DNA from: a virus
Lineage: Duplodnaviria; Caudoviricetes
DNA: 53,958 bases
Virus record (IMG/VR): IMGVR_UViG_3300037313_000066
Span: 1-53,958 of that record
Strand: one strand, 5' to 3'
A model generated the notes under the pieces. That model saw only the letters and a program-made list of their open reading frames with translations. It made no database searches and was not told the DNA's origin. This document shows positions 1 to 16,921 of the stretch, piece after piece (position 1 is the stretch's first letter; each line of letters starts with the position of its first letter). A program made the translations under genes and the position numbers.

Positions 1-494
1 GTGCCGCGCCCGCCGGCGCTGGGTCATACCCCACCCGGTCACTCGACTTACTTGACTGGGCCGCATGACCATGCGAGCTAACGCATGACGATGCATCGAA
101 TGCGTGTTCGATCTGCCAGCGCTCCAGGTCACGAGCTGAATGGCAAACATGAGGAGAGCCTCACGTTACACGTCTGGCCGGCACCGAGCCGATCGGCAGA
201 CATGAGGTCAGCCTCATGTGTCACGCTCACCTGGAGAATGTGACGCGGCTCACACCTCTATAGGCTTGTGCACTGTAGACCCGACGTGCAATGATTCTCA
301 TGTCAGGCCGAAGGGGAACCGGAAGCCAGACACCGAACCGAATCGCTCACGGTCTACAGTTGACATCAGGCCGAAGGTGTGCAAGGATCGGGGTACCGAA
401 TCAACAGCACGTGCAAGCATCCGCCTAAGCGGCTCTGCCCGAGACATGCGAGATTCACAGTGTGACCCGAGCCGAATACGCCGAAAGTCTACAG

Positions 495-523
495 TTGACA
501 AACAGGCCGAAAGGCGATAGGCT
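495..523 (+). promoter_or_regulatory. Sigma70/SigA-type early promoter
   Basis: TTGACA (495-500), 17-nt spacer, TAGGCT (518-523). The -35 lies inside an operator copy (487-500). A weaker twin TTGACA is at 360-365. Confidence 0.75.
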
Positions 524-529
524 CGGAGA

Positions 530-1030
530 GCAGAACAACTGAATAGCAGCACGGGGCTAGCCCGTGCGACACGAACCCACTGTCCGTGATTGGCGCGCAA
601 GCGTAGGGCAACTGGGGGAGGCGTGAGGTAGCACAATCACCGCGCCTGAAGGTGTCCTGAATAGAGCAGTCTCTCCCTATGCGTGGGGCTGGTCGAAAGG
701 GGTAGCGCTGGAGGGACCGGGGCTCCCGTCGATAACCGGCCACCTTGACTAGGGACGTGTGCGTACCCATGCCGATCATCTGCATTGATCGGACGGGCAA
801 GCGAGCATAGGACGTGAGTGCGTGTCCTGAGGTTTCGGGCTCTTGAGTTTCTCAAGAGTTCGGAGTTAACGGAAAGTTGCTAGTCAGGGTGGATGGTTGA
901 GCCGGATGTCTTTCGACACGGGAGGACTTCACCAACGAAGTTGGGCAGGATCTCAGGGACTGCCGTGTCGGACACGAGAGGCGAGGGATGAGTCCTGATC
1001 CCGCTTGTAACCAGTGTCCAGTTGTTTGAG
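530..1030 (+). ncRNA. Candidate large structured non-coding RNA (~500 nt)
   Basis: No credible ORF. Ends pair (AACAACTG 534-541 with CAGTTGTT 1019-1026; GACAC 568-572 with GTGTC 1014-1018). 13-bp long-range stem 740-752/880-892 and many hairpins with G-U pairs. Starts just after the promoter. Confidence 0.6.
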
Positions 1031-1115
1031 TCCGTAGGACTTGCCTTGCTCCTCTCCGGTGTGAATCGGAGAGGGGTTCGGTTGGTGCATCGGACACCGA
1101 TCCAGGAGGAGAGTC

Positions 1116-1280
1116 ATGGCTAAGGTCTATCGCGAGAGCGACAAGCCGAAGATGGTCACGAGCGACCGCGTAGCGGCCGGCTGGAAGTCGCACAGGTGGG
1201 CTACGTCGGGTGAGGTTCACCCTGTCCAGGTCCGCACGATGTCGAAGAACGCACGTCGCAAGATGGTGCGTTATGCCTGA
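1116..1280 (+). CDS. Small basic hypothetical protein (54 aa, MAKVYRESDKPK...)
   Basis: Strong RBS AGGAGGAG, ATG 1116, TGA 1278-1280; below the ORF-track cutoff. Confidence 0.65.
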   Translation: MAKVYRESDKPKMVTSDRVAAGWKSHRWATSGEVHPVQVRTMSKNARRKMVRYA

Positions 1281-1362
1281 GCTCACTGGTCCGTACTCGG
1301 GTCGATTCCTGAGTTTGGACAACTGCCCGCTATGGCGGCAGGACTACGACGACGAGCCGGCC

Positions 1363-1599
1363 ATGCCGGACTACTACGGCCAGACCCGTGCACTCGCTGA
1401 GGACTTGGGCGGCACGCTGATCGACCTCGCCGGGGGGTGCGTGGGTGTGGTCCAGGAGCTTGGTGACGGACGCATCAAGGTGACCGCCCTGTCTCCTGAC
1501 GACGGTTGCGAGACCATCGCGACGTGGACCGAGGGTCCTGACGGCGAGCAGGAGAGTGAGCCGATCGTTTCGGAGTTCACCCCGTACGGATCGAAGTAG
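1363..1599 (+). CDS. Hypothetical acidic protein
   Basis: ORF 1210..1599; coding-like codon usage from ATG 1363. Confidence 0.6.
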   Translation: MPDYYGQTRALAEDLGGTLIDLAGGCVGVVQELGDGRIKVTALSPDDGCETIATWTEGPDGEQESEPIVSEFTPYGSK

Positions 1600-1603
1600 G
1601 GGG

Positions 1604-1632
1604 TTGCGTTATCGGTCTAGGGTGTGTACTGT
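1604..1632 (+). promoter_or_regulatory. Putative promoter overlapped by an operator
   Basis: TTGCGT-N17-TACTGT; the -10 lies within motif copy 1623-1636. Confidence 0.55.
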
Positions 1633-1667
1633 AGACCTCGTAAGGACGGGACGCCTAGGAGGGCGAG

Positions 1668-1862
1668 ATGGACCTGATTGGCAAGCGAGTCGAGATCCCG
1701 GCTCACACGGATTATTGGATGATGGGCGATCGCTTCGGTGAGATCACCAAGGTCGTCGAGAACAGTGCCGGCGTTTACATTGCAACTGTAGACATGGACC
1801 GGAGTGGCAAGCGTCGTCGGTTCCGTGCCGACGCCCTGACTTTCATCGAGACGGGAGTCTGA
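1668..1862 (+). CDS. Small SH3-like phage protein (DxWMxGDRxG type)
   Basis: RBS AGGAG; motif TDYWMMGDRFGEI recalled from early genes of actinophages. Confidence 0.75.
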   Translation: MDLIGKRVEIPAHTDYWMMGDRFGEITKVVENSAGVYIATVDMDRSGKRRRFRADALTFIETGV

Positions 1863-1864
1863 CC

Positions 1865-2263
1865 ATGACGAACGAGGATCTGAAGCGACAGGTCGAGCAC
1901 ATCGCCAACGAGCTGAGTGGGGGAGTCGACGGGTCGGAGTGGGCCTATGAGTGGCACGAGTCCAACTGCCGGCTCTACGACGCGGACGGCGAGGAGACGC
2001 TGAGCGAGCACCTGGAGTGGTGCGACGAGCGTCCCAGCGTGGCTGACTGGATGGAGGACGTGCTCGACATCGAGTACATCGTCAACTCCCGACGCGAGTA
2101 CATCGGGGCGCGGGTGCTCGTCGGGTTCGGCGGTCCGAACCTGTGGATCAACACGCGGACCAGCACCGTGGAGGGCTACTGGTGGGGCGCGTACGAGGAG
2201 CAGCGCTACACCGACAACCTCGGCCTGGACGACTGGCTTGAGGAGTATTGGGACCTCGGCTGA
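1865..2263 (+). CDS. Acidic hypothetical phage protein (GGPN motif)
   Basis: RBS GGGAG; D/E- and W-rich; GFGGPNLWI motif. Confidence 0.8.
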   Translation: MTNEDLKRQVEHIANELSGGVDGSEWAYEWHESNCRLYDADGEETLSEHLEWCDERPSVADWMEDVLDIEYIVNSRREYIGARVLVGFGGPNLWINTRTSTVEGYWWGAYEEQRYTDNLGLDDWLEEYWDLG

Positions 2264-2350
2264 GCTCTTGCGTGAGGGCTACGTGTGAAGCGTAGACCTC
2301 GCGCTGGATAGCAGCCTGCTACCACCACCACTGACCTAGGAGGGTCTGTC

Positions 2351-2443
2351 ATGGCGAAGTACGTCACCCACAAGCGTTCCAACGAGGGCAAGCGCGAGAC
2401 GCTGCGTCGTCGCGAGATCCGCCGCGTGAAGTACGGGAAGTGA
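2351..2443 (+). CDS. 30-aa basic peptide MAKYVTHKRSNEGKRETLRRREIRRVKYGK
   Basis: RBS AGGAGG 6 nt upstream; stop overlaps the next start. Confidence 0.65.
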   Translation: MAKYVTHKRSNEGKRETLRRREIRRVKYGK

Positions 2444-3237
2444 CTGACATGAGCGTGAGCCTGAAGAAGGACAACCTTTGCGAGCACGGTCGACTGATCG
2501 ACAACGACGGCACCGTGTCCTGCATGGACTGCGACTGGTGCACCACCTGCGAGCAGGTGACCTCGTGGGAATCCGAGCGTTGCAGCGGGTGCGACCGAGC
2601 GTGGGGCGATCCCGACCTCGTGACCGTCAACCTGGACGACCCGTGGGCCTTCATCACGGGACGTGTGTACGCCTACCAGGGCTGGAGTGCCGAGCAGGTC
2701 GAGGCCGGCGACACTTTGCGGGGGATCGACCTTCAGGCAATGAGCAACGCCGAGCACGTCACCCGGTACAACGACGAGTACCCGATCTTCGTCGAGATCC
2801 CCGGTGCGTACATCGACGGCATCCACGACGACCTCATGGGCCGCTCGAACTTCGAGCGACTGGAGGAGGATTACGGCGACTACCTCTACCGGGCATCGTG
2901 GACGTACTCCGACCACCTGCTCGTCCGCGTCGGGGAGCGGATTCCCGAGACGCTGATGAACGCGATCCTCGGCTTCAACGACTACCCGCTCTACGACGAG
3001 GAGGACTACTCCCGACGTGAGTGGGAGGCGTACGAGTCCTGCCTCGACGAGGCGATCGACCACGCTCGGCGGGTCTATGAGATGGACAACGACGAGCTCA
3101 CCGAGGACCAGTTCGAGGCCGCTCGGGTGTCTGTCCAGGAGCACGTCTCCAACGCCGGCCAGTGGTGCCGTGACGAGGATGTCGACTGGGACGAGGTGGC
3201 CGGCCTGTTCCGTGACGCGATCGGCGTCGACGAGTGA
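2440..3237 (+). CDS. Highly acidic hypothetical protein with N-terminal Cys-rich Zn ribbon
   Basis: CxxC pairs; YPLYDEEDYS motif; very D/E rich. Confidence 0.8.
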   Translation: MTDMSVSLKKDNLCEHGRLIDNDGTVSCMDCDWCTTCEQVTSWESERCSGCDRAWGDPDLVTVNLDDPWAFITGRVYAYQGWSAEQVEAGDTLRGIDLQAMSNAEHVTRYNDEYPIFVEIPGAYIDGIHDDLMGRSNFERLEEDYGDYLYRASWTYSDHLLVRVGERIPETLMNAILGFNDYPLYDEEDYSRREWEAYESCLDEAIDHARRVYEMDNDELTEDQFEAARVSVQEHVSNAGQWCRDEDVDWDEVAGLFRDAIGVDE

Positions 3238-3338
3238 ACGCCGATCACATCGTCGCGCTGAGCGGCATCACCATCATTCTTGCCCTTGCCGTCCGGCACG
3301 GGTTCAAGCAACACACAACTGAATACGAAGGAGAGTGA
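3234..3338 (+). CDS. 34-aa hydrophobic peptide
   Basis: GTGA overlap with upstream stop; VNADHIVALSGITIILALAVRHGF...; fills the gap exactly. Confidence 0.45.
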   Translation: MNADHIVALSGITIILALAVRHGFKQHTTEYEGE

Positions 3339-3341
3339 CTG

Positions 3342-3800
3342 ATGAACACACGCAAGTTCGCGACCATCGCCCTCGGCATCGTGATGATGCTGGGCATCAC
3401 CCTCGGGACGACCGGCACCGCTCAGGCGGGGGAGTGGCACCACCACCCGGTCAACTACGCGGGGAGCATCCACCATCGAGGCTTCCCTCCCTGCCTGGAG
3501 GAGGACGGCTCGACCCAGTGGTCCTGCGTCTGGAACGGCCACGCGGCCGGCAACGGCATCGGACGATCCTTCATCGTCACCCACAACCGGATGGGTCACC
3601 ACGCCCGGTACCACTACATCCGGTCCCACAGAGCAGCTCACCTGATCCGTGTGTGGATGCACCATCACTGTGAGCGCGCCCAGCGAAAGGTCTACCTCTG
3701 CGAGGGGTGGCGCGTGATGCACCACCACAAGCGGATGGTGGGACCGTTCCCGGCACACACGCCGATCTCGGATCACACGTACCCGCCGATGATCCGCTGA
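3342..3800 (+). CDS. Secreted His-rich protein
   Basis: Signal peptide ending AQA; 20 His; PPCxxEDGS...CxW...GNGxGxSF motif. Confidence 0.75.
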   Translation: MNTRKFATIALGIVMMLGITLGTTGTAQAGEWHHHPVNYAGSIHHRGFPPCLEEDGSTQWSCVWNGHAAGNGIGRSFIVTHNRMGHHARYHYIRSHRAAHLIRVWMHHHCERAQRKVYLCEGWRVMHHHKRMVGPFPAHTPISDHTYPPMIR

Positions 3801-3808
3801 CTTCAGCA

Positions 3809-3864
3809 GCCTAGGAGCAAGGTGCGAGGGGTTCGCCCCTGCGGTTCGAGTCCGCACCTAGGCA
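3809..3864 (+). ncRNA. tRNA-like mini element (acceptor stem plus T-arm mimic)
   Basis: GCCTAGG/CCTAGGC 7-bp stem stacked on TGCGG-TTCGAGT-CCGCA; a GGGG-TTCG-CCCC hairpin replaces the anticodon arm. Confidence 0.5.
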
Positions 3865-3909
3865 CTGGCACCCGAGCTTGGGGAAGATCGGGTGCCGCTA
3901 ACTCTACAG

Positions 3910-3939
3910 TTGACATATGGTGTGAACTGGAGATACCGT
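3910..3939 (+). promoter_or_regulatory. Promoter covered by an inverted operator pair
   Basis: TTGACA-N18-TACCGT; motif copies at 3902-3915 (-) and 3921-3934 (+). Confidence 0.65.
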
Positions 3940-3973
3940 TACGGCAACGCAACGCCGACGAAGGGAGTTCGGA

Positions 3974-4870
3974 ATGACCGTCAAGACTCGCAGCATCACC
4001 ACCACCGCCCACTACATCGAGGTGGACGGGATCGGCTACCCGACGACGTTCGAGGCCGCTGAGTACATCGACGCTCGTGTGGACATGGAGGGCCGGCACA
4101 ACGCCGAGGGAACCCTGGTCACGATCGTCTACGCGGCCCGCGACGAGTGCTCCGACAACCCCCGCGACCACTTCGACCCCTGCGGCACGATGGTCCGCGT
4201 CCGTGACGGCTACAACGGCATCGACATCGACGTGCCGGACTCCGACATCGCCGCCGCGCTCGAAGTCGCCCAGGATCTGATCGACTACTTCAAGCGTGCC
4301 GAAACCGAGATCTTCTACGTCGTGAAGTGCGGATGCGCCTGGAGCGGCCATGCCCTTGACGAGGTCGAGACCGGCGAGTGCGCCTACCCGTATGAGGCCC
4401 TGATCGTCGGAGGCGAGGACTCCACATTCCCGGACGGCTCAACCCTTGGGAAGGAGTTCGGCGCTGGCGGGGACCACGACCTTGACCTCGAAGGCGTCGC
4501 CGCCATGTTCATGAAGTGGAAGCGGGATCACTGGTCGGATGCCTACGACCTGACGCGGGCCTACGTCGGCGAGACTCGTCCGGACATCACCGGCTTCATG
4601 CGGTGGGACATCAGCGGCTACTCCCAGAGCGACTGGGCCGAGGGCTATATCTACACGACTCGTGACGACCTCGGTGACCCGATCGCCGCGCTCAAGGCCG
4701 AGGTGCGCGAGTACGACGCATGGGCCAAGGGCGACGTGTACGTGATCGCCAAGGAGACCTACCGGCTCCTGCCGGACGGCGAGGTCGAGCACATCGACTA
4801 CGAGTGCGTGGGTGGCTACTACGGAGACGACGAGACGGCTCGTCTGATCCAGACGGGAGACGTGTTCTGA
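3974..4870 (+). CDS. Acidic hypothetical phage protein
   Basis: 298 aa; GYSQSDW, YDAWAKGDVY and CxGGYYG motifs; RBS GGGAG. Confidence 0.8.
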   Translation: MTVKTRSITTTAHYIEVDGIGYPTTFEAAEYIDARVDMEGRHNAEGTLVTIVYAARDECSDNPRDHFDPCGTMVRVRDGYNGIDIDVPDSDIAAALEVAQDLIDYFKRAETEIFYVVKCGCAWSGHALDEVETGECAYPYEALIVGGEDSTFPDGSTLGKEFGAGGDHDLDLEGVAAMFMKWKRDHWSDAYDLTRAYVGETRPDITGFMRWDISGYSQSDWAEGYIYTTRDDLGDPIAALKAEVREYDAWAKGDVYVIAKETYRLLPDGEVEHIDYECVGGYYGDDETARLIQTGDVF

Positions 4871-5235
4871 TGAACCGCCCGACCCTGACCGAGATCTTCC
4901 GGCTCCAGAACCCCTTCAGTGCCGCAGAGCTCTCCGACGAGGAGATCCTGGAGTACGTCGAGCACCACTCCGGTGGCCTGATCGTGCTCGGTGCTCCGAG
5001 TGAGCGCGGCTACGCCAAGATGCACGACTCGTGGGGTCCTGGTGCCCCTGACGAGCCGGGGAACATCGTGGTCCACGACTACGACCCTGACCGCGTGTAC
5101 GACGGTCCCGAGGGCTCGATCTCCTTTACCGAGGACGGCATCCCCGGCGAGATCTGGCCGGACGGCACGGTCTGGTACTTCGGCTCCGGTCGGGATGCCT
5201 ACCAGCACTTCCTCAAGACGATCGGAGACGACTGA
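4870..5235 (+). CDS. Hypothetical protein
   Basis: TGATG coupling with upstream gene. Confidence 0.75.
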   Translation: MNRPTLTEIFRLQNPFSAAELSDEEILEYVEHHSGGLIVLGAPSERGYAKMHDSWGPGAPDEPGNIVVHDYDPDRVYDGPEGSISFTEDGIPGEIWPDGTVWYFGSGRDAYQHFLKTIGDD

Positions 5236-5432
5236 TGGGGCTCAAGACGGGCCGGATCTACAAGGTCATCGACCTTTCGGAGACGACCGGCAATCGGACG
5301 GCCTACGCGGTGTCTCCCGACACCGAGGGTGCGTACTGGTACGACTCGCTCGCGATCGCCAAGGACGAGCACGGCGATCTCCCCGTGGTCGAGGTCGACC
5401 GGGACTACTTCGACGCACTCAGGGAGGACTGA
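5235..5432 (+). CDS. Hypothetical protein
   Basis: TGATG coupling; RBS GGAG. Confidence 0.7.
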   Translation: MGLKTGRIYKVIDLSETTGNRTAYAVSPDTEGAYWYDSLAIAKDEHGDLPVVEVDRDYFDALRED

Positions 5433-5433
5433 C

Positions 5434-5673
5434 ATGGCCCGCATGACCTACCTGTTCCAGCCGACGCTCTACGTCTTCCAGGGCGACGACGGCGAGTGGG
5501 TGGCTCAGTTCGAGTGGGGCGACTCGTACACCGAGGCGTACCACGACGAGGACGTGAACAAGCAGCCCGAGGCCGGCGAGGTGGAGCAGGTGTGCGCCAT
5601 GGTCGACGACTGGATCGCCTACGAGAGCCTCAAGAACCCCTTCCGCATCCCAACCCGACCCGAGGAGCACTGA
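5434..5673 (+). CDS. Hypothetical acidic protein (MARMTY...)
   Basis: RBS GGAGG; TGACATG junction. Confidence 0.7.
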   Translation: MARMTYLFQPTLYVFQGDDGEWVAQFEWGDSYTEAYHDEDVNKQPEAGEVEQVCAMVDDWIAYESLKNPFRIPTRPEEH

Positions 5674-5674
5674 C

Positions 5675-5827
5675 ATGGCACGCAAGGTCATCATCACCCT
5701 GCCCGACGACGAGTACATCGAGGCCGACTCGCGCTACGTCCGCAACGTCGCCACACAGATCGGACTCGGCTTCCTGTCGGGCCACCTAGATGCCGAGCAC
5801 CACTGGACGATCGAGAAGGGAGTCTGA
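5675..5827 (+). CDS. Hypothetical 50-aa protein (MARKVIITL...)
   Basis: RBS GAGGAG; TGACATG junctions on both sides. Confidence 0.65.
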   Translation: MARKVIITLPDDEYIEADSRYVRNVATQIGLGFLSGHLDAEHHWTIEKGV

Positions 5828-5828
5828 C

Positions 5829-6056
5829 ATGGCCCGTCAGACCATCGAGGCCGAGCAGGCTCAGGAGGGGGACTCGATCCCCGGCCTGGACAACGCCTAC
5901 GTCATCGACGTGGAGACCACCGAGCTACGGGCATTCAGTGGCACGTACAACGTGTCGCTCGGCGTGATGACTGCCATCACCTTCAACGACCGCTACGGCA
6001 ACGAGGGCTACCTCCTTGTCGAGCCCGACCACCCGCTCGTCGTTGAGCGTGTGTGA
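5829..6056 (+). CDS. Hypothetical protein (MARQTIEA...)
   Basis: RBS GGGAG; TGACATG junction. Confidence 0.7.
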   Translation: MARQTIEAEQAQEGDSIPGLDNAYVIDVETTELRAFSGTYNVSLGVMTAITFNDRYGNEGYLLVEPDHPLVVERV

Positions 6057-6079
6057 ACCGTAGATCACGAGAGGACTAC

Positions 6080-7525
6080 ATGAGCAACACGAAAGCGATC
6101 GTCCTGTTCTCGGGGCCGGGAGGCACCACGCAGGGCATCAAGGATGCTGGCATCGAGGAGGTCGTCGGCATCGAGTTCGAGGAGACCGCCGTCGAGACGG
6201 CGCGAGCGGCAGGGCATTACGTCGTCCATGCGGACGTGCGAGAGCTCGACCCCCGCACGGTCTACGACGAGCTCCTGAACTGCAACGACGACGAGTTCTT
6301 CCGTCTCCTGGCCCAGATGTCGCCGCCCTGTCAGGGGCTGAGCATGGCTGGGAAGGGGAAGGGTCGCGACGACCTGGAGTTCCTGCTGAACGCCGTGCAG
6401 GCGCTCTCGCACACCGCCGGCCTCGCTGAGACGTTCGGTCAGGCTCGGGAGATGATCCCGATGCTGATGGAGACGCTCGTGGCCGACTGCTCGGACGAGC
6501 GCTCGCCGCTCACGTTCGAGGTCATGCGCTGGATCTTCGACCTGTCGCCCGACTACATCATGCTGGAGCAGGTGCCTGCCGCTCTCCCGATCTGGGAGGC
6601 GATCGCTGAGGTGCTGGAGTCGTGGGGCTACGCGGTGTGGACAGGGAACGTGCAGGCCGAGCAGTACGGCGTGCCGCAGACCCGCAAGCGCGCCATCCTC
6701 ATGGCGACCCTCCACCGCACCGAGCTGGCCGGCCCAGTGCCGACGCACTCGAAGTACCACAACCGCACGCCCGACCGCCTGGACGAGGGTGTCCAGAAGT
6801 GGGTCAGCATGGCCGAGGCACTGGACTGGGGGATGACCCACCGCCCGTACCCGACCATCGCACCCGGCACTGGCGTCGGTGGTCCCGACTCGCTGGCCGT
6901 GGGCGGCTCCGGTGCTCGCAAGACGATCTACGCCGAGCACGCCGAGGGTCGCTGGGTCGAGCATCCCGACTACGTGGAGACCGGCCAGCAGTGGTACGAC
7001 ATCGGGGGAGTGCTCATCAAGCAGACCCGCTCGATCGAGGACCCCGCTCCGACCGTCACCGGCAACACGAAGGCGTGGAAGGTCCATACCCACATGGGTG
7101 ACGTGGCCCAGTCGAACGGCACCGTGCGCCCCGTGGACGCTCCCGCTCCGACGCTCACCGCGTCGATGGACAACGGCAACTTCCGCTGGGTCGACCGTGA
7201 GGCTCTGGTCAAGGAGGTCGAGCCTCGCGTCAACAACCAGTCGGGCACCGAGTTCGACCTGACGTGGCCTGCCGATCGCCCCGCCCCTGTCATCGCAGGG
7301 CGCGATCTGGTCACCATGCCGGGTGCGAACGCCAACCGCTTCAACGGCTCGACCAAGAGCCGCAACGACGGCATCCGCGTGACCGTCGAGGAGGCAGGCG
7401 TCCTCCAGTCGTTCCCCGCCACCTACCCGTGGAAAGGCACGAAGACGAAGAAGTTCCAGCAGGTCGGCAACGCCGTACCGCCCCTGCTTCAGTGCAAGTT
7501 GACCCAGCACCTTCTCGGTGTGTGA
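6080..7525 (+). CDS. DNA (cytosine-5)-methyltransferase
   Basis: Motif I LFSGPGG, IV SPPCQ, VI EQV, VIII QTRKR, X QVGNAVPP. Confidence 0.93.
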   Translation: MSNTKAIVLFSGPGGTTQGIKDAGIEEVVGIEFEETAVETARAAGHYVVHADVRELDPRTVYDELLNCNDDEFFRLLAQMSPPCQGLSMAGKGKGRDDLEFLLNAVQALSHTAGLAETFGQAREMIPMLMETLVADCSDERSPLTFEVMRWIFDLSPDYIMLEQVPAALPIWEAIAEVLESWGYAVWTGNVQAEQYGVPQTRKRAILMATLHRTELAGPVPTHSKYHNRTPDRLDEGVQKWVSMAEALDWGMTHRPYPTIAPGTGVGGPDSLAVGGSGARKTIYAEHAEGRWVEHPDYVETGQQWYDIGGVLIKQTRSIEDPAPTVTGNTKAWKVHTHMGDVAQSNGTVRPVDAPAPTLTASMDNGNFRWVDREALVKEVEPRVNNQSGTEFDLTWPADRPAPVIAGRDLVTMPGANANRFNGSTKSRNDGIRVTVEEAGVLQSFPATYPWKGTKTKKFQQVGNAVPPLLQCKLTQHLLGV

Positions 7526-7551
7526 ACAGTAGAGCGAGGTAGTCACACAGA

Positions 7552-8007
7552 ATGACCATTGAGTCCAACCACCTGCGACTGGTCGGAGCGATCGCTCGGC
7601 CACTCTCGGAAGAAGCAGACCTCGACTTCGAGGAGACGGACGGGACCGAGGAGATCATCGACTGGGACGAGCTGGAGTATCTGCTCGACACCGGAGAGAT
7701 CGCCACCCAGGTCGACCTGTTCGTGTGGATCAAGGCGGCGTACGGCGCGGTCGACATGCGCCCCCATGCGTACCTGCGTCAGCGGGTGCTCGACGGCCTG
7801 TTCCCCGAGTACCGGGAGATGTGCGCCAACCTGCCCGAGGGTGAGAGCAACCGGCGCTACGGCCTGTTCACCAGCGATCAGGTGATCGAGATGCGTGCTC
7901 GGTACGAGGCCGGCGAGACGGTCACCGAGCTCGCCAGGGTCTTCGGTGTCAGCCGTGGCCCGATGCGCAAGATCCTCAACTACGAGACCTACAAGGAGGT
8001 CGCGTGA
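7552..8007 (+). CDS. Protein with C-terminal HTH DNA-binding domain
   Basis: GETVTELARVFGVSRGPMRKIL. Confidence 0.75.
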   Translation: MTIESNHLRLVGAIARPLSEEADLDFEETDGTEEIIDWDELEYLLDTGEIATQVDLFVWIKAAYGAVDMRPHAYLRQRVLDGLFPEYREMCANLPEGESNRRYGLFTSDQVIEMRARYEAGETVTELARVFGVSRGPMRKILNYETYKEVA

Positions 8008-8492
8008 GCACCCTGATCGACACCGAGTACGAGTTCGGGGACCGCCTCGTGATCTGCGGTGACCTCGCCACCGAGGACTACGCCGGCCATCATGGCTTCG
8101 CTCTCGGCACCGAGGTCACCGTCGTCGACACGTTCCTGGACGAGGGCTACAACGTGGAGGACTCCCTCGGGAACCGATGGATCGTCCACTCGGACGACCT
8201 GATGCCCCTCGCGGAATATCAGGCCGAGGAGGCTCTCTCCCGCCTCCGAGCGATGCTCACCGAGTCCGCGCCTGCCACGCAGCAGGCCGAGGCCGACATG
8301 GTGAACCACCCGCCGCACTACAACGACCACCCCAGCGGGGTCGAGTGCATCCAGATCACCGAGCACATGAACTTCTGCCTCGGCAACGCAGTGAAGTACA
8401 TCTGGCGGGCCGACCTGAAGCACGACGCGATCGAGGACCTAGAGAAGGCCGTCTGGTACGTCCAGCGCGAGATCGCACGCCGTAAGGGCTGA
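8004..8492 (+). CDS. DUF3310 / T7 gp1.7-like protein with N-terminal SH3-like domain
   Basis: VNHPPHYN...ECI...FCLGNAVKYIWRA...EDLEKAVWY. Confidence 0.85.
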   Translation: MSTLIDTEYEFGDRLVICGDLATEDYAGHHGFALGTEVTVVDTFLDEGYNVEDSLGNRWIVHSDDLMPLAEYQAEEALSRLRAMLTESAPATQQAEADMVNHPPHYNDHPSGVECIQITEHMNFCLGNAVKYIWRADLKHDAIEDLEKAVWYVQREIARRKG

Positions 8493-8562
8493 GCCCTTGC
8501 ACCTACAGTGCACACGATGGTGTACTGTAGACATCGCCACCACAACAGACAGGAGCAACGCC

Positions 8563-9507
8563 ATGACCCAGACCGCTACCGAGACCATCACCCAGATCGA
8601 CACCGAGAACGTCATCACCGTCGAGGACGCCGAGGGTGCCAACGCCCTGCCGGCCGGCACCGTCCTGATCGAGTCGGACGGCGCTCCGGTCACGGTCCTC
8701 GCCAACGGCTCCTTCACGGGCCTCTCGGCTGACCTGATCGACGAGAGCTACGAGGGCTTCACCGCCGAGGAGATCTTCTACCCGGCCACCGTGCAGAACC
8801 CCGAGGTCCTCGGTGAGTTCGTCGACGCCGAGGTGCGCCATCCGCTGATCGGCCAGACCGTGAAGATGCTCGCGCCGATCGGCTGCTTCAAGGAGGGTGA
8901 CCTCGTGCAGGTCGTCGAGCATCACGACGACAAGGAGTACCCCTTCCTCGTGACCACCGACAGCATCGAGCACTGGCGGGTGCCGGTGCGCGAGAGCGAG
9001 TTCGCCCCGCTGGTCGAGGAGACCCCCGAGGAGGAGCCGCTGGCCGAGTGGGAGAAGGAGCTGCTCGGCCTCACGACGACCGAGACCTTCGACTTCACCT
9101 TCGAGCAGGCCGAGGGCTTCGAGGAGTTCTACAAGCTCATGTTCGGCGACGCCGACCCGACCACGGACACCCTCTTCCAGGTCGGGGACGAGGTGCGGAT
9201 CGCCCCGAACGCCTGTGCCCGCGACGAGGACGGCCAGATGGTTCTCGTCAACGAGGCCGTCCGCGACAAGACGGGTGTCGTCCAGGAGGTCCGCGTGTGG
9301 CCCGGTGTCAGTGGCCTGCACTACCTCGTCGGGCAGGTCGACGACGCCCCCGAGTGGCTCAGCCAGTGGATCGTCGAGGAGCACCTCGCCGTGAGCTACG
9401 CCGAGGGCGACCGGGTGCCGTACGACGAGTCGTTCACCGTCCCGAAGGGCTCGATCCTGCTCTTCGACGGCAAGCTGGAGGGCTTCAAGCTCATCCACCG
9501 CGCCTGA
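8563..9507 (+). CDS. Acidic multi-domain hypothetical protein
   Basis: RBS AGGAG; SH3-like segments; LAEWEKELL motif. Confidence 0.8.
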   Translation: MTQTATETITQIDTENVITVEDAEGANALPAGTVLIESDGAPVTVLANGSFTGLSADLIDESYEGFTAEEIFYPATVQNPEVLGEFVDAEVRHPLIGQTVKMLAPIGCFKEGDLVQVVEHHDDKEYPFLVTTDSIEHWRVPVRESEFAPLVEETPEEEPLAEWEKELLGLTTTETFDFTFEQAEGFEEFYKLMFGDADPTTDTLFQVGDEVRIAPNACARDEDGQMVLVNEAVRDKTGVVQEVRVWPGVSGLHYLVGQVDDAPEWLSQWIVEEHLAVSYAEGDRVPYDESFTVPKGSILLFDGKLEGFKLIHRA

Positions 9508-9525
9508 CGTGTGAACCGTAGAGCC

Positions 9526-9563
9526 GACCGGGGCAGGAGACTGTGGGGGCTTCTGCCCCGGTC
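9526..9563 (+). terminator. Stem-loop (terminator or processing site)
   Basis: GACCGGGGCAGGAG / CTTCTGCCCCGGTC; no U tail. Confidence 0.45.
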
Positions 9564-9585
9564 CTAAGCAGGGGAAGGAGGAGGT

Positions 9586-10071
9586 GTGGCACTCAAGTTC
9601 ACCGCCTCGCACCGCAAGCGCATCGCAGCGGTGCTGGAAGGCGACCACGAGAGCCTGGACGATGCCGTGGACGCGGTGATGGCTCTCATGGGAGACCTGA
9701 TCGAAGATCGAGCGTCCTTCGTGGTGGTGGGTCAGCTCTACGCGACCAGGGGCCGGCTTGACGTGCCCCCCTCCGACCCCGAAGCCGTCAAGGTGTGCCT
9801 CGGTCTCTACAGCACCGAGGGTGACGCCAGATCCGCCGCCGAGAGTCTCTGGACCTCCACCGCCAGCGGCGACTGCTTCAGGACGTGGTGGCTGCCCATC
9901 GAGCACGCCAGCCCTGCCGAGTGGCACAAGGGCCGCAAGGAGCACTACGCGGCTCTGGAGAAGAAGCGCGACGACGCCAACGCAGAGCGCATCAAGAAGT
10001 CGATCGAGAAGAGACAGGCCGAGGCGCAAGCCCGAGCCGACGCCCTGCGAGAGGAGCAGAACGCAGCATGA
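9586..10071 (+). CDS. Hypothetical protein with C-terminal coiled coil
   Basis: Strong RBS AAGGAGGAGG; GTG start. Confidence 0.8.
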   Translation: MALKFTASHRKRIAAVLEGDHESLDDAVDAVMALMGDLIEDRASFVVVGQLYATRGRLDVPPSDPEAVKVCLGLYSTEGDARSAAESLWTSTASGDCFRTWWLPIEHASPAEWHKGRKEHYAALEKKRDDANAERIKKSIEKRQAEAQARADALREEQNAA

Positions 10072-10232
10072 GTAGTTGGACCAAGACCCTGCACATCCAG
10101 GTCGAGAACTATGCCGTAGGGATCCGCCTGAGCGACCTCCGCAGGATCGTCGAGGAGACCAAGGGCTGGCCTGACGACCTCCAGGTCATGGAGGGCCGAC
10201 GCGAGATCAACGAGCTGGCGGTAGGGGAGTGA
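10068..10232 (+). CDS. Hypothetical protein (54 aa)
   Basis: ATGA overlap with upstream gene. Confidence 0.6.
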   Translation: MSSWTKTLHIQVENYAVGIRLSDLRRIVEETKGWPDDLQVMEGRREINELAVGE

Positions 10233-10435
10233 AGCGCCTCTGCATGTGCATCGTCATCGGCTCGATCCTCTGGGGATCGCTCATGGCACTGGAGGGGTGC
10301 GCCCCGGAGAGGCCGTGCGACCACGGCCACTACGACACGTACCTACAGCCGATCTTCAACGGCAAGACCACCACCTTCGTACCGATGCAGCAGTTCGTCT
10401 GCGATCAGTACGTCGACCAGAAGGGAGAGCAGTGA
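10229..10435 (+). CDS. Small membrane protein or lipoprotein
   Basis: Hydrophobic N-terminus with lipobox-like LEGC. Confidence 0.65.
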   Translation: MKRLCMCIVIGSILWGSLMALEGCAPERPCDHGHYDTYLQPIFNGKTTTFVPMQQFVCDQYVDQKGEQ

Positions 10436-11664
10436 CCGCCAAGGACCTGGCTCATCAGAGCCGATCCATCGCTCGCAAGGCCATCAAGGGCTACGCGACG
10501 TACGAGACCACCCGGCAGTCGGTGAACACGTTCCTCGACAAGAAGTGCCACACCTACAGGATCGACCAGGACTACGGCTACGACCTGTTCGAGGCGGCGA
10601 AGGATGTTGTCGAGGAGTATCGGGTCAACACGCCTCTCAGTCCTCGAAGCGACGACAACCACGTCAACAGCGCCTACCCGAACTTCGGCACCGGCTGGCT
10701 TCCGCTGACGATCCCCGGCGTCGCCCGCCTCGCCCAGGTGCGCCAGCCGCAGTACGACAGCCTGGAGTTCCGCACGCTGCTCAAGCGCGACATGTCGGCC
10801 CTGAAGGCGTACCTCAAGCTCCGCGAGCAGGAGTACGCCACCGACGAGCCCGAGCTCGACTTCTTCGACGTGCCCTCCAAGACGCAGATCATCGCGTGGG
10901 ACGCCAAGAACGGATGCTGGGACAGCCGGAAGAACCGCAACTCCCGCACCTTCAAGAGCGTCTTCCTGCCGAGCGGCATCCAGTCCGAGATCGAGGCCGA
11001 CCTCAAGGCGTTCACCGAGAGCCGTGAGCGGCTCACCCGGCTGGAGATGCCGTGGCGACGTGGCTACCTGCTCGAAGGCCCTCCCGGCACCGGCAAGACG
11101 AGCCTCTCGCTCACGATCGCCGGCTCGCTGGGCTTCCGCCTCGCGACCCTGAGCCTCACCGAGATCAAGGGTGACGCCGAGCTTCGTCAGGCGATCAACG
11201 CCCTCGGTGGTCGCTCGGTGCTCGTGATCGAGGACATCGACGCCTACTCGGTGAGCCACGACCGCGACCACAACAACGCGAAGGACGGTGCCCTCAGCCT
11301 GTCCGGCCTGCTCAACGCGCTAGACGGCTTCGAGACGCCAGACGGTCTGGTCACCATCGCGACCACGAACCACCTGGAGAAGCTCGACCCCGCGCTCGTC
11401 CGCTCGGGCCGGTTCGACCGGACCTTCACCCTCGACTACATAGAGGCTCCCGAGCTGGAGCGCCTGTTCCAGTGGTTCTACGAGAAGCCTGCCCCGTCGC
11501 CAGCCCCGATCGAGGTGCACGACGCCAAGATGGCTCCTGCCGAGGTGGCTGAGATCTTCAAGCAGCACCTGGACGACCCGCTGGCCGGCTGGAACGCCGT
11601 GCTGGAGGTCGTCGGTGTCGAGCCGGTCTCGCTTCCGAACTACCACTTCCCGATCGCCGCATGA
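10432..11664 (+). CDS. AAA+ ATPase (BCS1-like)
   Basis: WRRGYLLEGPPGTGKTS, VLVIEDID, LSGLLNALDG, LDPALVRSGRFD. Confidence 0.92.
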   Translation: MTAKDLAHQSRSIARKAIKGYATYETTRQSVNTFLDKKCHTYRIDQDYGYDLFEAAKDVVEEYRVNTPLSPRSDDNHVNSAYPNFGTGWLPLTIPGVARLAQVRQPQYDSLEFRTLLKRDMSALKAYLKLREQEYATDEPELDFFDVPSKTQIIAWDAKNGCWDSRKNRNSRTFKSVFLPSGIQSEIEADLKAFTESRERLTRLEMPWRRGYLLEGPPGTGKTSLSLTIAGSLGFRLATLSLTEIKGDAELRQAINALGGRSVLVIEDIDAYSVSHDRDHNNAKDGALSLSGLLNALDGFETPDGLVTIATTNHLEKLDPALVRSGRFDRTFTLDYIEAPELERLFQWFYEKPAPSPAPIEVHDAKMAPAEVAEIFKQHLDDPLAGWNAVLEVVGVEPVSLPNYHFPIAA

Positions 11665-11828
11665 GGATCGAGGAGAAGACCTACACGCTGGCCGAGGCGA
11701 GGGTCGAACTCAAGCGGCGGGAGTGTGTTGCCCACGGCCACGCCTGGGACATCATCAGCAGCGCTGCTGGCCCATTCCGGGCGATCTGCGGATGTGGGGC
11801 CGCTTACAGGATGGAGAGGATCACATGA
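11661..11828 (+). CDS. Hypothetical 55-aa protein (C-x3-GH...CxC)
   Basis: ATGA overlaps at both ends. Confidence 0.55.
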   Translation: MRIEEKTYTLAEARVELKRRECVAHGHAWDIISSAAGPFRAICGCGAAYRMERIT

Positions 11829-11968
11829 AGATCACCAGCAGCCTCAACGAGATCGAGGTCGACCTGAGGGCGATCGAGCGCGAGCTCATCACCCTGAACC
11901 GCACCCTCGCCCGCCTCGTCGCCGTGGCCGAGCTGCTCACGGCACCCATCAAGTTCATCGTTCGCTAA
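11825..11968 (+). CDS. Hypothetical 47-aa coiled-coil peptide
   Basis: RBS GGAGAGG; 3' part of ORF 11615..11968. Confidence 0.55.
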   Translation: MKITSSLNEIEVDLRAIERELITLNRTLARLVAVAELLTAPIKFIVR

Positions 11969-12002
11969 GTGTGAACCGTAGACCAAGGAGATCAATCACC
12001 AC

Positions 12003-12947
12003 ATGCTGTTCCTGACCATCGTCCTCGCGCTCATCGCGCTCATCGGCCTCGCCATCCTCATCGGCGGGCCGAAGGTCACCGTCGACAAGGGGCGCTCCTA
12101 TGAGCGCACCATCAGCGTCCGCATCTTCGGCACGATCCCGCTGGGCCTCGCGGTCCTGATCCTGCTCGGCATGTCCTTCACCCAGGTCCACGCCAAGGAG
12201 ATTGGTGTCGTCACCTCGGGTGGCAAGCCGGTCAACGAGCTCGGCGCTGGCATCCACCTGAAGGCCCCGTGGCAGCACGTCACCAAGATCAACGAGACGA
12301 TCTTCACCGACACCTACGCCAACGACCAGCAGATCCCGGTGCGCCTCGGTGACGGCAACACCGCGCAGGTCTCGGCCACGATCCGCTGGCACGTCGACCC
12401 GGCTGCTGCGCAGTACATCTTCAGCAACTACCGCTCGAACGACCCGGCTGAGTCCCTGCGTGACTCCGTGGTCGACACCCAGTTCAAGGCTGCCGTCAAC
12501 GACGTGCTCGCCCACTTCAACCCGACCTCGCTGATCCAGAGCGCCGGCTCCCAGAAGTCGACCGTCAACTTCACCCCCGACTACGACGCGCTCGGCAAGA
12601 GCATCACCGAGTCGATGAAGGGCCGCGTGATCGACGCCGAGGGCGTGCCGATGGTCGTCATGGACGGCATCACCGTCTCGGGCATCCAGTACAGCGCCGA
12701 CACCGAGGGCCGCATCAACGCCCTGATGGCTCAGGTCGCGAAGACCCAGCAGGCGATCCAGTCCGAGACCACGGCCAAGGCGCAGGCGCAGGCCAACCGC
12801 ATCCTGAGTTCGTCGCTGTCGCACGACCCGTACGTCCTGGTCTCCAAGTGCCTCGACGACCTCGCGGACGGCAAGTTCTCGGCCCCGGCTGGCTTCTCCT
12901 GCTGGCCCGGTGGCAACGGCTCCGTCGTGATCCCGAGCGGGCGCTGA
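12003..12947 (+). CDS. SPFH/Band-7 membrane protein
   Basis: Two N-terminal TM helices; EIGVVTSGGK...AGIHLKAPW; A/Q coiled coil; C-terminal CWPG. Confidence 0.88.
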   Translation: MLFLTIVLALIALIGLAILIGGPKVTVDKGRSYERTISVRIFGTIPLGLAVLILLGMSFTQVHAKEIGVVTSGGKPVNELGAGIHLKAPWQHVTKINETIFTDTYANDQQIPVRLGDGNTAQVSATIRWHVDPAAAQYIFSNYRSNDPAESLRDSVVDTQFKAAVNDVLAHFNPTSLIQSAGSQKSTVNFTPDYDALGKSITESMKGRVIDAEGVPMVVMDGITVSGIQYSADTEGRINALMAQVAKTQQAIQSETTAKAQAQANRILSSSLSHDPYVLVSKCLDDLADGKFSAPAGFSCWPGGNGSVVIPSGR

Positions 12948-13174
12948 TGGCCGAGTACAACCTCACGTTCCTCCAGACGGCATCGACGTACGTGACCGTC
13001 GAGGCCGATGACCTGGATGAGGCTCTCGACCTCGCCTACGAGCAGCTTCCTGGCGGCGTCTGTGCTCAGTGCTCTGGCTGGGGTCAGTCGCACTCGGGCA
13101 TCGACCTCGACGGCGACTGGGAGTTCGACGAGTCCTACTACACCGTCGACGGAGAGGAGATCCGAGGTGAGTGA
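12947..13174 (+). CDS. Small acidic CxxC protein
   Basis: TGATG coupling; GGVCAQCSGW. Confidence 0.7.
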   Translation: MAEYNLTFLQTASTYVTVEADDLDEALDLAYEQLPGGVCAQCSGWGQSHSGIDLDGDWEFDESYYTVDGEEIRGE

Positions 13175-13388
13175 AGCACTGCTCAAGGAGCTCGTCGCGG
13201 CCTTCAAGGAGGGCTGGGGCACGGCCAACTGGCTCGGCCTCGACGGCTCCCGCACCCTCATCGGCCTCGGTGAGGCCCTGCCCGTCGCGCTGCTCGCCTA
13301 CACCGAGTGGCTCGCCACCCTCGGTCTGCTCAACGACCGGATCTTCGACTGGGACGCGCTCGTCCTCGACTTCCTGAAGGAGGGCTAG
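13167..13388 (+). CDS. Hypothetical protein
   Basis: GTG start with RBS GAGGAG. Confidence 0.6.
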   Translation: MSEALLKELVAAFKEGWGTANWLGLDGSRTLIGLGEALPVALLAYTEWLATLGLLNDRIFDWDALVLDFLKEG

Positions 13389-13585
13389 TGACCCTCGAAG
13401 CCGCCCTGCTGCACGAGGTCTCCGTGATCCAGCGGGACAAGACGCTGCTGCTCGTGCGGGATGCCATCGACAGCATCCCGGTCGACATGGAGGACCGCCA
13501 GCGCTCGTGGGGGCGCGTTGACCGGAAAGCCGTCGACTTCAAGCGCGATCTGCTCCACCGACTCGAAACCCTGAAGGAGGGCTGA
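13388..13585 (+). CDS. Hypothetical protein
   Basis: TAGTG coupling; RBS AAGGAGG. Confidence 0.65.
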   Translation: MTLEAALLHEVSVIQRDKTLLLVRDAIDSIPVDMEDRQRSWGRVDRKAVDFKRDLLHRLETLKEG

Positions 13586-14874
13586 TGAAGTTCGACGCCA
13601 TCAAGAACCCCAACTACGTCGCGACCGTCGTACGCATCGAGGCGGACAGCCTCTACTCGGTGCCCGGTCTCGACAACCTGCTCGGCTACAGCAAGTTCGG
13701 GATGCAGGCCCTCGTGTCGAAGGACACCGCGCCGGGTCTCTACATCCTGTTCTCCACCGAGGTCCAGCTCAGTGAGGACTTCGCTCGGGCGAACAACCTC
13801 CACCGTGAGGCCACGCTGAACGCCGACCAGAACGTCACCGGCTACCTGGAGCAGAACCGCCGCGTGAAGGCGATCAAGCTGAAGGGCAACCGCTCGGACT
13901 CCCTGCTCATGCCGCTGGACAGCCTGAGCTATCTGGGGCCGAAGGGGATCTTCAACGAGGGCGACGTGTTCGACTCGATCGACGGCCAGGAGATCTGCCG
14001 GAAGTACCTCGCCAAGGAGCCCAAGGAGAACAACGGCAACCAGCCGAAGGCGCGGGTGCGTCGGGTCGACGAGAAGGTCTTCCCGCAGCACATCGACAGC
14101 GAGAACTACTGGCGGAACGAGCACAAGATCCCGCTCGACGCTCACCTGATCGTCACTCAGAAGCTCCACGGCACCTCGGTTCGGTACGGCCACGTGCCGG
14201 CCCTGATCGACGAGTCCGAGCAGAAGTGGTGGGAGAAGCTCCTGCGTCGTCCGCTGCGCAGCGAGTACCGCTTCATCGTCGGCAGCCGCCGCACGGTCAA
14301 GTCGCTCGACCTCAAGCCCGAGGACGGCAAGAACAACTACTACGCCGATGGTGACCTCTGGACCCGCTACGCCGACGAGAACCGTCTCGCGGACCGCATC
14401 CCGAAGGACCACATCGTCTACGGCGAGCTCGTGGGCTTCACGAGCAAGGGCTCCCCGATCCAGAAGAACTACACCTACGACCTGCCGGACGGCGAGGCGG
14501 CTCTGTTCGTCTACCGGGTGGCCGTGGTCACCGCCGAGGGTCACGTCGTCGACTACTCGCACGACCAGATGGTGCAGTTCTGCCACGAGCGCGGCCTCGC
14601 AACAGTGCCCGAGCTCTGGCGGGGGCTCGCGGCGGACTTCAACGCGGACAGCTTCATCGAGCGCCGGTACTACGACGAGTGGAAGAACGTCTTCGACTAC
14701 TTCCCCGAGTGCCCGGTCCCGCTGTCGCACCCCAAGCTCGTCGACGAGGGCGTCTGCGTGCGCCTCGACGGCCAGCACGGCGTCTATGTCCTGAAGGCCA
14801 AGAGCCCGTCGTTCCTGGAGCACGAGACCAAGATGCTCGACACCGGGGCTGAGGACCTGGAGGCGGCAGCGTGA
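13585..14874 (+). CDS. ATP-dependent RNA ligase (Rnl2/DRB0094-like)
   Basis: Motif I QKLHGTS, III YGELVG, IIIa LFVYRV, IV DEGVCVR, V LKAKS; extra N-terminal domain. Confidence 0.88.
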   Translation: MKFDAIKNPNYVATVVRIEADSLYSVPGLDNLLGYSKFGMQALVSKDTAPGLYILFSTEVQLSEDFARANNLHREATLNADQNVTGYLEQNRRVKAIKLKGNRSDSLLMPLDSLSYLGPKGIFNEGDVFDSIDGQEICRKYLAKEPKENNGNQPKARVRRVDEKVFPQHIDSENYWRNEHKIPLDAHLIVTQKLHGTSVRYGHVPALIDESEQKWWEKLLRRPLRSEYRFIVGSRRTVKSLDLKPEDGKNNYYADGDLWTRYADENRLADRIPKDHIVYGELVGFTSKGSPIQKNYTYDLPDGEAALFVYRVAVVTAEGHVVDYSHDQMVQFCHERGLATVPELWRGLAADFNADSFIERRYYDEWKNVFDYFPECPVPLSHPKLVDEGVCVRLDGQHGVYVLKAKSPSFLEHETKMLDTGAEDLEAAA

Positions 14875-15290: not shown

Positions 15291-15625
15291 GCGAGCTCAC
15301 CATCACCCCGCAGATCATCAACGACATGGCTGACCACATCGAGAGGGTCGGACTCAACAAGGGCTCGTACTTCAAGGACGTGCCCATCCGAAACGTTTGG
15401 TACGACACCTCCGTCGCGGCAAACGTTCCCTGCTGCACCCTCGGCGCGCTGCACTACGTCGTCGCAAGTGACTCAGCGAAGGTGGCTTACAGCATGGAGG
15501 ACGAACTGGCCCAGTTGCTCGACGTCGACTTCATCCCGACCTGGAACGACAAGCCGAGCCAGCGCAAGTCTCGTGTCGTCGCCCGTCTTCGCAAGGCTGC
15601 TGCCGCCCTGGAGGCCGCAGCGTGA
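15287..15625 (+). CDS. Hypothetical actinophage protein (CxxGA...WND)
   Basis: RBS AAGGAGG; ATGA overlap. Confidence 0.75.
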   Translation: MSELTITPQIINDMADHIERVGLNKGSYFKDVPIRNVWYDTSVAANVPCCTLGALHYVVASDSAKVAYSMEDELAQLLDVDFIPTWNDKPSQRKSRVVARLRKAAAALEAAA

Positions 15626-16915: not shown

Positions 16916-16921
16916 GTGTTT

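Follow-up and report, generated by a model that had tools for sequence, protein, structure and literature searches.

A candidate structured leader RNA between the early promoter and the first gene of an R4-like actinophage from soil

Introduction

The closest described counterpart of the RNA considered here is made by mycobacteriophages of cluster A. According to Dedrick et al. 2017 (PMC5712189), phages L5, D29, and StarStuff produce an extremely abundant and stable non-coding RNA of ~500 nt from Pleft, encoded between this promoter and gene 89. About 90% of the Pleft transcripts stop short of gene 89, and processing of the RNA gives rise to species of 100-400 nt (PMC5712189). The region is described there as toxic when cloned, deletion of one part of it (called the left part and the promoter-distal part) failed, and the authors consider RNAs of the Pleft type to be common among phages of such an architecture. 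A 2025 preprint (bioRxiv 10.1101/2025.11.21.689395) agrees on the Pleft RNA, and both sources present it as the most abundant phage transcript, toxic and partly essential, with a function that is still unexplained. Equally long, structured, and non-homologous leaders in R4-type phages and in a soil phage would turn this cluster-specific oddity into a general architectural feature.

GOLLD and ROOL are phage-borne, multi-junction RNAs of several hundred nucleotides and unknown function, and both families are defined by their wide conservation. Cis-acting antitermination leaders are exemplified by the nut/BoxA sites of phage lambda, the put sites of HK022 (about 70 nt), and BoxA of rrn leaders.

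The DNA analysed here (the window) is 53,958 bases long and corresponds to an entire IMG/VR virus record with a completeness rating of 100%. A sequence-only reading had proposed that positions 530-1030 specify an ornate non-coding RNA of ~500 nt and of an undescribed kind. The latter part of this proposal has to be withdrawn because cluster A mycobacteriophages make an abundant non-coding RNA of ~500 nt from the equivalent promoter, Pleft (PMC5712189). The kind is known from mycobacteriophages, though unexplained, and the window provides a non-homologous example in a different lineage.

Genome setting

A large terminase is encoded at 49721-51436 (minus strand); its identity to the enzymes of Streptomyces phage R4 and related phages amounts to 68-69%. 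Structural and replication genes are located on the minus strand together with genes for a large serine integrase (16922-18634) and for a homologue of immunity repressors. A rightward, early-type gene block of 16.5 kb extends from base 1 and includes genes for a methyltransferase, an RNA ligase, and a polynucleotide kinase as well as many small ORFs. Base 1 is the physical genome end (cos end); the end sequence GGTCATACCCCAC is common to the window and its relative G001, and a looser likeness consists in CCCCACC, which is found at the ends of both R4 and Lika. The window contains, in reverse orientation, an R4-like temperate actinophage in its entirety, so that the element sits at the phage's right end. 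The phage is known from soil metagenomes only.

Promoter, operator and repressor

The promoter region and the predicted regulator comprise the following features:

487-523, plus strand: early promoter, consisting of GTCTACAGTTGACA at 487-500 (operator overlapping the -35 region), TTGACA at 495-500, a 17-nt spacer, and the -10 sequence TAGGCT at 518-523
352-388, plus strand: promoter-like copy further upstream, with operator and -35 region GTCTACAGTTGACA at 352-365, a CAGGCCGAAGG box, and the weak -10-like sequence AAGGAT at 383-388
272-280, plus strand: operator-like 9-mer ACTGTAGAC, inverted relative to both promoter copies
31329-31868, minus strand: immunity-repressor homologue (phrog_3929, E 1.3e-52)

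The promoter TTGACA-N17-TAGGCT lies directly 5' of the stretch in question and, as had been proposed, is presumably of the repressor-controlled type, its -35 region overlapping a repeated operator-like motif. We infer a transcription start near 530. Use of the upstream copy could shift the start to a position near 395, which would make the RNA longer by 135 nt. Neither a promoter nor a terminator was predicted here by a scan for E. coli-type consensus sequences; the promoter escaped because TAGGCT agrees with TATAAT at only three of six positions. Promoters of the form TTGnnn-N17-TAGAGT are present at the same place in R4 and L5. Three tandem promoter-like units with CAGGCCGAAGG can be discerned (296-330, 352-388, and 487-523), of which the latter two are fused to the operator.

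Two copies of GTCTACAGTTGACA exist, starting at 352 and 487 (repeat families D3 and D6). The 9-mer ACTGTAGAC occurs in nine exact copies in the genome as compared with 0.24 +/- 0.45 expected, a number that none of 100 shuffles reached. Two of the copies are fused to TTGACA, and most are located at or near gene boundaries as read from the ORF list. The extended consensus is GTGYACTGTAGAC, and the operator measures 13 bp. Cluster A phages likewise possess an asymmetric 13-bp repressor site that is repeated throughout the genome, and the operator array of the window resembles their operator/stoperator system as described in PMC5712189 and PMC9262239.

The product of 31329-31868 shares 45-54% identity with proteins annotated as immunity or transcriptional repressors (25 listed of 172 matching Streptomyces phage records) and is presumed to bind the operator motif. 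Given that the phage encodes both this homologue and a serine integrase, the earlier suggestion that the promoter is silenced in lysogeny is a reasonable one. Moreover, an R4-like temperate phage with a repressor homologue and a repeated operator makes the element the positional counterpart of the Pleft RNA.

Coding potential

Between the promoter and the first early gene lies the following arrangement:

530-1115, plus strand: structured leader or candidate non-coding RNA; ORF-free, with fold z-scores of -4.98 and -4.70 and low ensemble diversity
1106-1112 and 1116-1280, plus strand: ribosome-binding site GGAGGAG and first early ORF (54 aa; GC3 0.78)

The gap from the genome end to the first gene thus measured in the window is 1115 nt. 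ORFs on the plus strand within 530-1115 do not exceed 33 aa, and the GC content stays below 0.70 at every codon position in all 150-nt windows of 526-1050, as compared with a GC3 of 0.69-0.91 in eight reference genes. The absence of a credible ORF, noted previously for this stretch, is borne out by these values.

Secondary structure

The minimum-energy fold is composed of these parts:

533-540/1020-1027, plus strand: long-range closing helix that encloses the body and persists when the 3' flank is added
549-567, plus strand: 5' hairpin of 7 bp with the loop GCUAG, part of 545-610 (z -0.20)
593-604, plus strand: GCAA-capped hairpin that follows the 5' hairpin
734-898, plus strand: core domain with a four-way junction, 165 nt and 62 pairs (z -6.43)
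1048-1060/1065-1077, plus strand: 3' hairpin of 13 bp (three G-U) with a GUGA loop; outer pairs 1030-1034/1091-1095, followed by UCGGUUGGUG

Folding of 530-1030 yielded -223.5 kcal/mol on the plus strand. In the comparison with dinucleotide shuffles, a check that the sequence-only reading had called for, this corresponds to a z-score of -4.98 with none of 100 shuffles being as good. After GC regression the candidate ranks third among 214 windows of the genome, and 12 sense-strand control windows of 501 nt from the same genome ranged from z +2.04 to -3.04, with two of them at about -3. The ensemble diversity is 50.9, as opposed to 120.7 +/- 27.5 in 40 shuffles (none as low) and 99.9-182.7 in six coding windows.

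The excess of structure is local and resides mainly in the core (734-898) and in the 3' hairpin (1048-1077). Taken alone, 730-900 (171 nt) folds with -80.2 kcal/mol, which none of 200 shuffles matched, and 1028-1100 with -40.7 kcal/mol (z -5.59), its fold accounting for 62% of the ensemble. The segments 545-610 and 900-1030 (z -0.04) are by themselves no better than shuffles, and the flanks joined after removal of the core score z -2.56. Of the ornate RNA of ~500 nt originally envisaged, the core stands, to which the 3' hairpin is to be added; the remainder is locally at the level of shuffles, and the description of the whole as ornate is therefore overstated.

This restriction of the significance to one domain and one hairpin, together with the two control windows near -3, is what would be expected if the stretch were a functionless spacer, a remnant of mosaic recombination or gene decay, which is transcribed by virtue of its position and whose fold excess is fortuitous or due to selfish inverted repeats. 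We regard this explanation as quite unlikely since the z-scores of the entire stretch and of the core exceed that of every control, the ensemble is far better defined than those of shuffles or coding windows, and no residual codon periodicity is left, as would be expected of a recent pseudogene. It is also at odds with two other phage lineages keeping a long non-coding RNA at exactly this position.

The core is closed by a helix composed of 734-738/894-898, 740-752/880-892, and 754-756/876-878, and it encloses hairpins at 772-792, 809-828, and 833-865. Six of the seven stems listed in the sequence-only reading proved to be complementary as given, namely 534-541/1019-1026 (8 bp, perfect), 549-567 (7 bp), 568-572/1014-1018 (5 bp), 740-752/880-892 (13 bp, one G-U), 834-864 (14 bp, three G-U), and 601-608/675-682 (8 bp, one G-U), while the seventh, 914-922/963-971, requires a shift by one base (913-921/963-971). 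The closing stem, hairpin 549-567, and the 13-bp stem all recur in the minimum-energy fold, as does the long hairpin, which extends there to 15 bp (833-847/851-865). The other three are replaced by a local hairpin at 570-588 and by the pairings 606-610/1015-1019, 692-700/909-917, and 666-674/955-963. The GCAA loop is found at 597-600 of this fold, whereas the second candidate loop, GAAA at 694-697, is located within a helix.

Strand specificity

On the minus strand, the z-score drops to -2.87 for 530-1030 and to -3.39 for the core. G-U pairs make up 27 of the 180 pairs in the fold of 530-1030, with one to four of them in each long stem. As they correspond to A-C mismatches on the other strand, they argue for an RNA rather than a DNA structure, and the earlier remark that the G-U pairs work on the plus strand agrees with both sets of values.

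Copies of the motif G(T/A)GTCCTGA start at 652, 822, and 990. They read GTGTCCTGA at 652-660 and 822-830 and GAGTCCTGA at 990-998, with spacings of 170 and 168 nt. An internal tandem module suggested by this spacing of GTGTCCTGA was rejected because the alignment shows no module. Another sequence, CTGAATAG, is present at 539 and 657 in the leader. The cos-proximal end (1-290), which is located 5' of the promoters, is rich in hairpins, too, e.g. CATGAGGTCAGCCTCATG at 201-218. In windows of 170 nt on the plus strand, this untranscribed region has z-scores of about -2.6 to -3.0, so that part of the structure excess is a general trait of this genome end. The hairpins of 1-290 are possibly packaging or protein-binding sites.

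The hairpins in the adjoining 1-290 region, the distance of less than 1.1 kb from the cos end, the score of the core on the minus strand, and the three spaced motif copies would suit an element acting at the level of DNA, be it a replication origin, an accessory packaging site, or an array of protein-binding sites, whose inverted repeats function in double-stranded or extruded DNA. Such an element appears most improbable to us because more than two dozen of the pairs, being G-U, are mismatches in DNA and on the other strand, because the two strands differ markedly in their scores, and because the stretch is located downstream and not upstream of the promoter.

The 3' end of the leader

The 3' hairpin 1048-1077 is a candidate attenuator or 3'-end former. 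A terminator scan found no site of a canonical intrinsic terminator at this hairpin, whose tail UCGGUUGGUG contains four U in 10 positions; it remained uncalled because a U run is missing. The ribosome site GGAGGAG of the first gene follows the hairpin at a distance of 29 nt and shares part of its sequence with a small hairpin at 1101-1110.

These elements next to the ribosome site, together with a 5' end sequestered in the closing helix, would fit a purely cis-acting 5' untranslated leader that protects the mRNA from 5'-end-dependent decay, tunes read-through or translation, or modifies RNA polymerase, with no discrete or trans-acting RNA being formed. Cis signals are indeed known in early leaders of this phage group, as illustrated by phage Lika, whose leader shares an exact 16-mer with an element ~245 nt upstream of 16S rRNA in a genome of host type (see below). 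We nevertheless judge a function restricted to cis to be unlikely. With ~500 nt the leader is far longer than known stabilisers and antitermination sites need to be, it lacks an rrn-leader-like motif, and its counterpart in L5 accumulates as discrete species according to PMC5712189.

Comparison with the Pleft RNA

The window element and the Pleft RNA of cluster A phages occupy the same site, i.e. the interval between an operator-overlapped early promoter near the genome end (487-523 in the window) and the first early gene (ORF starting at 1116). Both are ~500 nt in size, and like the window leader with its short plus-strand ORFs, the Pleft RNA contains no ORF above ~30 codons. The L5 RNA folds with a z-score of -3.66; it thus beats shuffles as the window RNA does with -4.98, and it ends just before the first gene, as the window RNA would. 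At the sequence level there is no similarity (best blastn matches of 9-17 nt, E >=1). The two also differ in that copies of the stoperator and the promoter are found inside the L5 RNA, whereas the repeated copies of the window are located 5' of the RNA. Expression, stability, processing, toxicity, and essentiality have been established for the mycobacteriophage RNA alone.

In L5 (L287:834-929, minus strand; 51133-51228 of the record), the 3' end of the Pleft RNA overlaps a match to the tRNA-Sec model (22.1 bits, E 0.23; gathering threshold 47). The element has an acceptor-like stem and a T-arm with GGGUUCGAUUCCC, ARAGORN made no call on it, and instead of terminating transcription it might serve as a processing signal. 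In contrast to this weak tRNA-like match in L5, no tRNA-like 3' end was seen in the window leader.

Searches for relatives and known families

The element 530-1115 is an orphan sequence judged by the searches made, and it belongs to no RNA family among those searched. Two spurious matches of less than 32 nt at E 7 were all that blastn obtained from 50,697 phage records, with 1-1400 (E 1e-5) and with 530-1115 (E 10) as queries. Sensitive blastn and nhmmer searches of 77 IMG/VR loci that were fetched via ORF 1865-2263 gave a single match of 15 nt (E 0.98), and in 80 terminase-related IMG/VR loci (blastn, nhmmer) the only matches were made by the 14-mer used to fetch other loci. No match to 530-1115 was obtained in 42 prophage loci from GTDB genomes (blastn, nhmmer). 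The two ORFs adjoining the RNA have none and one (40% identity) IMG/VR relatives, respectively, and ORF 2440-3237 has none.

Pattern scans of IMG/VR found the 14-mer operator at chance level only and neither the operator-plus-promoter nor the hairpin-plus-junction pattern. A metagenome scan with the junction 18-mer gave 15 matches, none of which fits the core model (best E 0.27), and a single-sequence covariance model of the core (R1) detected nothing below E 0.5 in 134 loci of relatives (~1.75 Mb). Among 401 genomes sampled from the phylum, BLAST with the leader as query produced five short matches (22-48 nt); three of them, involving the same part of the query, did not extend on alignment and belong to no Rfam family. 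The same search against five prophage-bearing genomes gave no match.

In the closest complete relative, G001 (terminase 88% identical), the first gene follows the genome end after 442 nt, the operator is a different one (GTGTTTCAACCTGAAACAC), and no match to the window leader is present. Both this absence from the closest relative and the orphan character of the sequence would also suit the spacer explanation discussed above. Contigs from four other soil or rhizosphere DNA runs are identical to the window; they offer no variants and thus no information. There is no RNA run among the sequencing runs listed for the window DNA.

Rfam 15, whose families cover GOLLD, ROOL, group I/II introns, RNase P, riboswitches, self-cleaving ribozymes, and tRNA-like elements, detected in the whole window only a tRNA at 52833-52905. 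With E values up to 10, three matches in 1-1400 (E 2.9-6, 13-16 bits) were returned, none of them near its gathering threshold, and no match was found in 1-17000 with E values up to 1. The Rfam comparison that had been recommended along with the initial proposal has thereby been carried out, and it yielded no match to GOLLD, ROOL, group I/II introns, RNase P, or self-cleaving ribozymes.

Leaders of R4 and its relatives

A conserved leader of ~480-540 nt is located between tandem promoters and the first solid gene of R4 and its relatives. By blastn it was found in 34 records with 71-100% identity, mostly unannotated by the depositors, and further copies occur in IMG/VR contigs and Streptomyces prophages. 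Conservation extends to at least 15 phages and prophages. The family includes the R4 locus L195:3095-3660 (minus strand), along with L280-L286, L225, L231, L314, L299, L295, L304, and L300. RNAalifold applied to eight phages predicted 137 pairs in 24 helices, with 92.3% of the cells able to pair as compared with 86.9% in shuffles. Changes on both sides were present in 36 of the 137 pairs versus 14.0 +/- 2.6 in shuffles (0 of 500 as many) and 3-16 in slid controls, numbers that are somewhat inflated because the structure was derived from the same alignment. No match to Rfam was found, and the R4-type leader is a candidate for a new family of large structured RNAs in cultured phages.

The R4-type leader has the same genome position and orientation as the window element and occurs in the same phage lineage, as judged by the terminase. 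Tandem promoters upstream and a long-range helix closing the ends are further common traits. It differs by being conserved and showing covariation, and its domain layout is unlike that of the window element. An unfiltered nhmmer search with the R4-type profile (alignment A1) gave no match in 530-1115 and only two elsewhere in the window (E 4.6 and 8.1). With R4-type covariance models run unfiltered on 1-2500, the best values at 530-1115 were E 0.64 and 1 for the 5' domain (R2) and 0.57-0.88 for the central domain (R3). The window element is therefore to be placed outside the L5-type RNA, the R4-type family, and the Rfam families, and shares with the first two its position, size, lack of ORFs, and strong folding.

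Five matches to the type II hammerhead ribozyme (39-54 bits; gathering threshold 37) are present in the last 4 kb of the R4 early arm:

L195:97-161, 982-1058, 1217-1277, 1900-1960, and 2400-2462, minus strand: hammerheads that seem to separate small early genes or to lie at their ends

They indicate that ribozymes are in use within this phage group. Within the limited coverage of our search, nothing relevant on Streptomyces phage leaders and hammerheads was found in the literature. The presence of these ribozymes, together with the size and multi-junction fold of the window RNA, raises the question of whether the latter could be a novel catalytic RNA, self-cleaving or otherwise, or belong to an ornate class like GOLLD and ROOL. 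To us this is highly unlikely: Rfam contains no family that matches 1-1400 or 1-17000, hammerheads in the early arm (1-17000) included, and a conserved core is not definable without homologues. Size, a multi-junction fold, and residence in a phage are traits that the window RNA has in common with GOLLD and ROOL; it differs from them by the lack of a covariance-model match and of wide conservation.

The leader of phage Lika represents yet another type. It is shorter and contains a 16-mer, CTTGAGAACTCAACAG (L196:3345-3360, minus strand), that is found without mismatch in three actinobacterial genomes (three, three, and one copies). The two Kribbella loci examined carry it on the strand of the 16S rRNA, ~230-245 nt upstream of the latter, in a region which we take to be the antitermination (BoxA-type) leader of the rrn operon. 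This suggests that Lika borrows host rrn antitermination. Lika-type leaders and the antitermination leaders of the nut/BoxA, put, and rrn BoxA types resemble the window leader in being located directly 3' of an early promoter, with an RNA that acts before the first gene. They are much shorter, however, and the exact 16-mer of the Lika leader is missing from the window leader: the rrn-leader element was not found in 530-1115 with up to two mismatches, nor was there a blastn match with E up to 1 to six rrn-leader loci, the reference being three actinobacterial genomes.

Proposed function

Taken together, the findings make it probable that 530-1115 specifies a genuine structured RNA, be it an early leader or a non-coding RNA. 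By analogy to L5, we propose a discrete early leader or non-coding RNA that is produced from the derepressed promoter and whose 3' hairpin ends or attenuates most of the transcripts, a proposal to which we give about even chances.

In this model, transcription of the early lytic operon would begin with 530-1115 as its non-coding leader. During lysogeny, the repressor encoded at 31329-31868 would occupy the 13-bp operator over the -35 region and keep the promoter shut, and upon infection or induction the leader would be the first RNA made. The RNA would close on itself via 533-540/1020-1027 around the four-way-junction core. Most transcripts may stop or be cut at the GUGA-capped hairpin 1048-1077, as is the case before gene 89 for the Pleft RNA of L5, D29, and StarStuff. 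The product would be a discrete, nuclease-resistant non-coding RNA of ~0.5 kb which accumulates early and acts on the host, and a minority of transcripts reading through would provide for expression of the early genes.

It is tempting to speculate, even if the idea is much more likely to be wrong than right, that the leader locus of L5/R4-like temperate actinophages is a hot spot for unrelated large structured RNAs, including the L5, R4, rrn-mimicking Lika, and orphan types, each being the first product for takeover of the host. The junction RNA 734-898 would then be the founding member of a new takeover class. For finding the role of such RNAs, the R4-type family in cultured phages provides comparative material; the window alone is of limited value until a relative or an RNA read turns up.

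Other features of the genome

The early arm and the adjoining minus-strand region contain three additional genes related to RNA metabolism or transcription:

13585-14874, plus strand: RNA ligase (phrog_968, E 1.9e-88)
15622-16533, plus strand: polynucleotide kinase (phrog_505, E 6.4e-96)
22618-23334, minus strand: ORF with a match to a phage sigma-factor family (phrog_3512, E 9.3e-28)

RNA ligase and polynucleotide kinase of the early arm form an RNA-repair pair; pairs of this kind are a phage weapon against anticodon nucleases. The sigma-factor-like protein might drive later transcription. Finally, the intergenic region 2258-2316 (plus strand) after ORF 1865-2263, in which a variant operator (GTGAAGCGTAGACC) is located, gives a partial match to the model of the R4 5' domain (15.4 bits, E 0.0028 for 2.5 kb). 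The match probably reflects a resemblance at the level of a hairpin.
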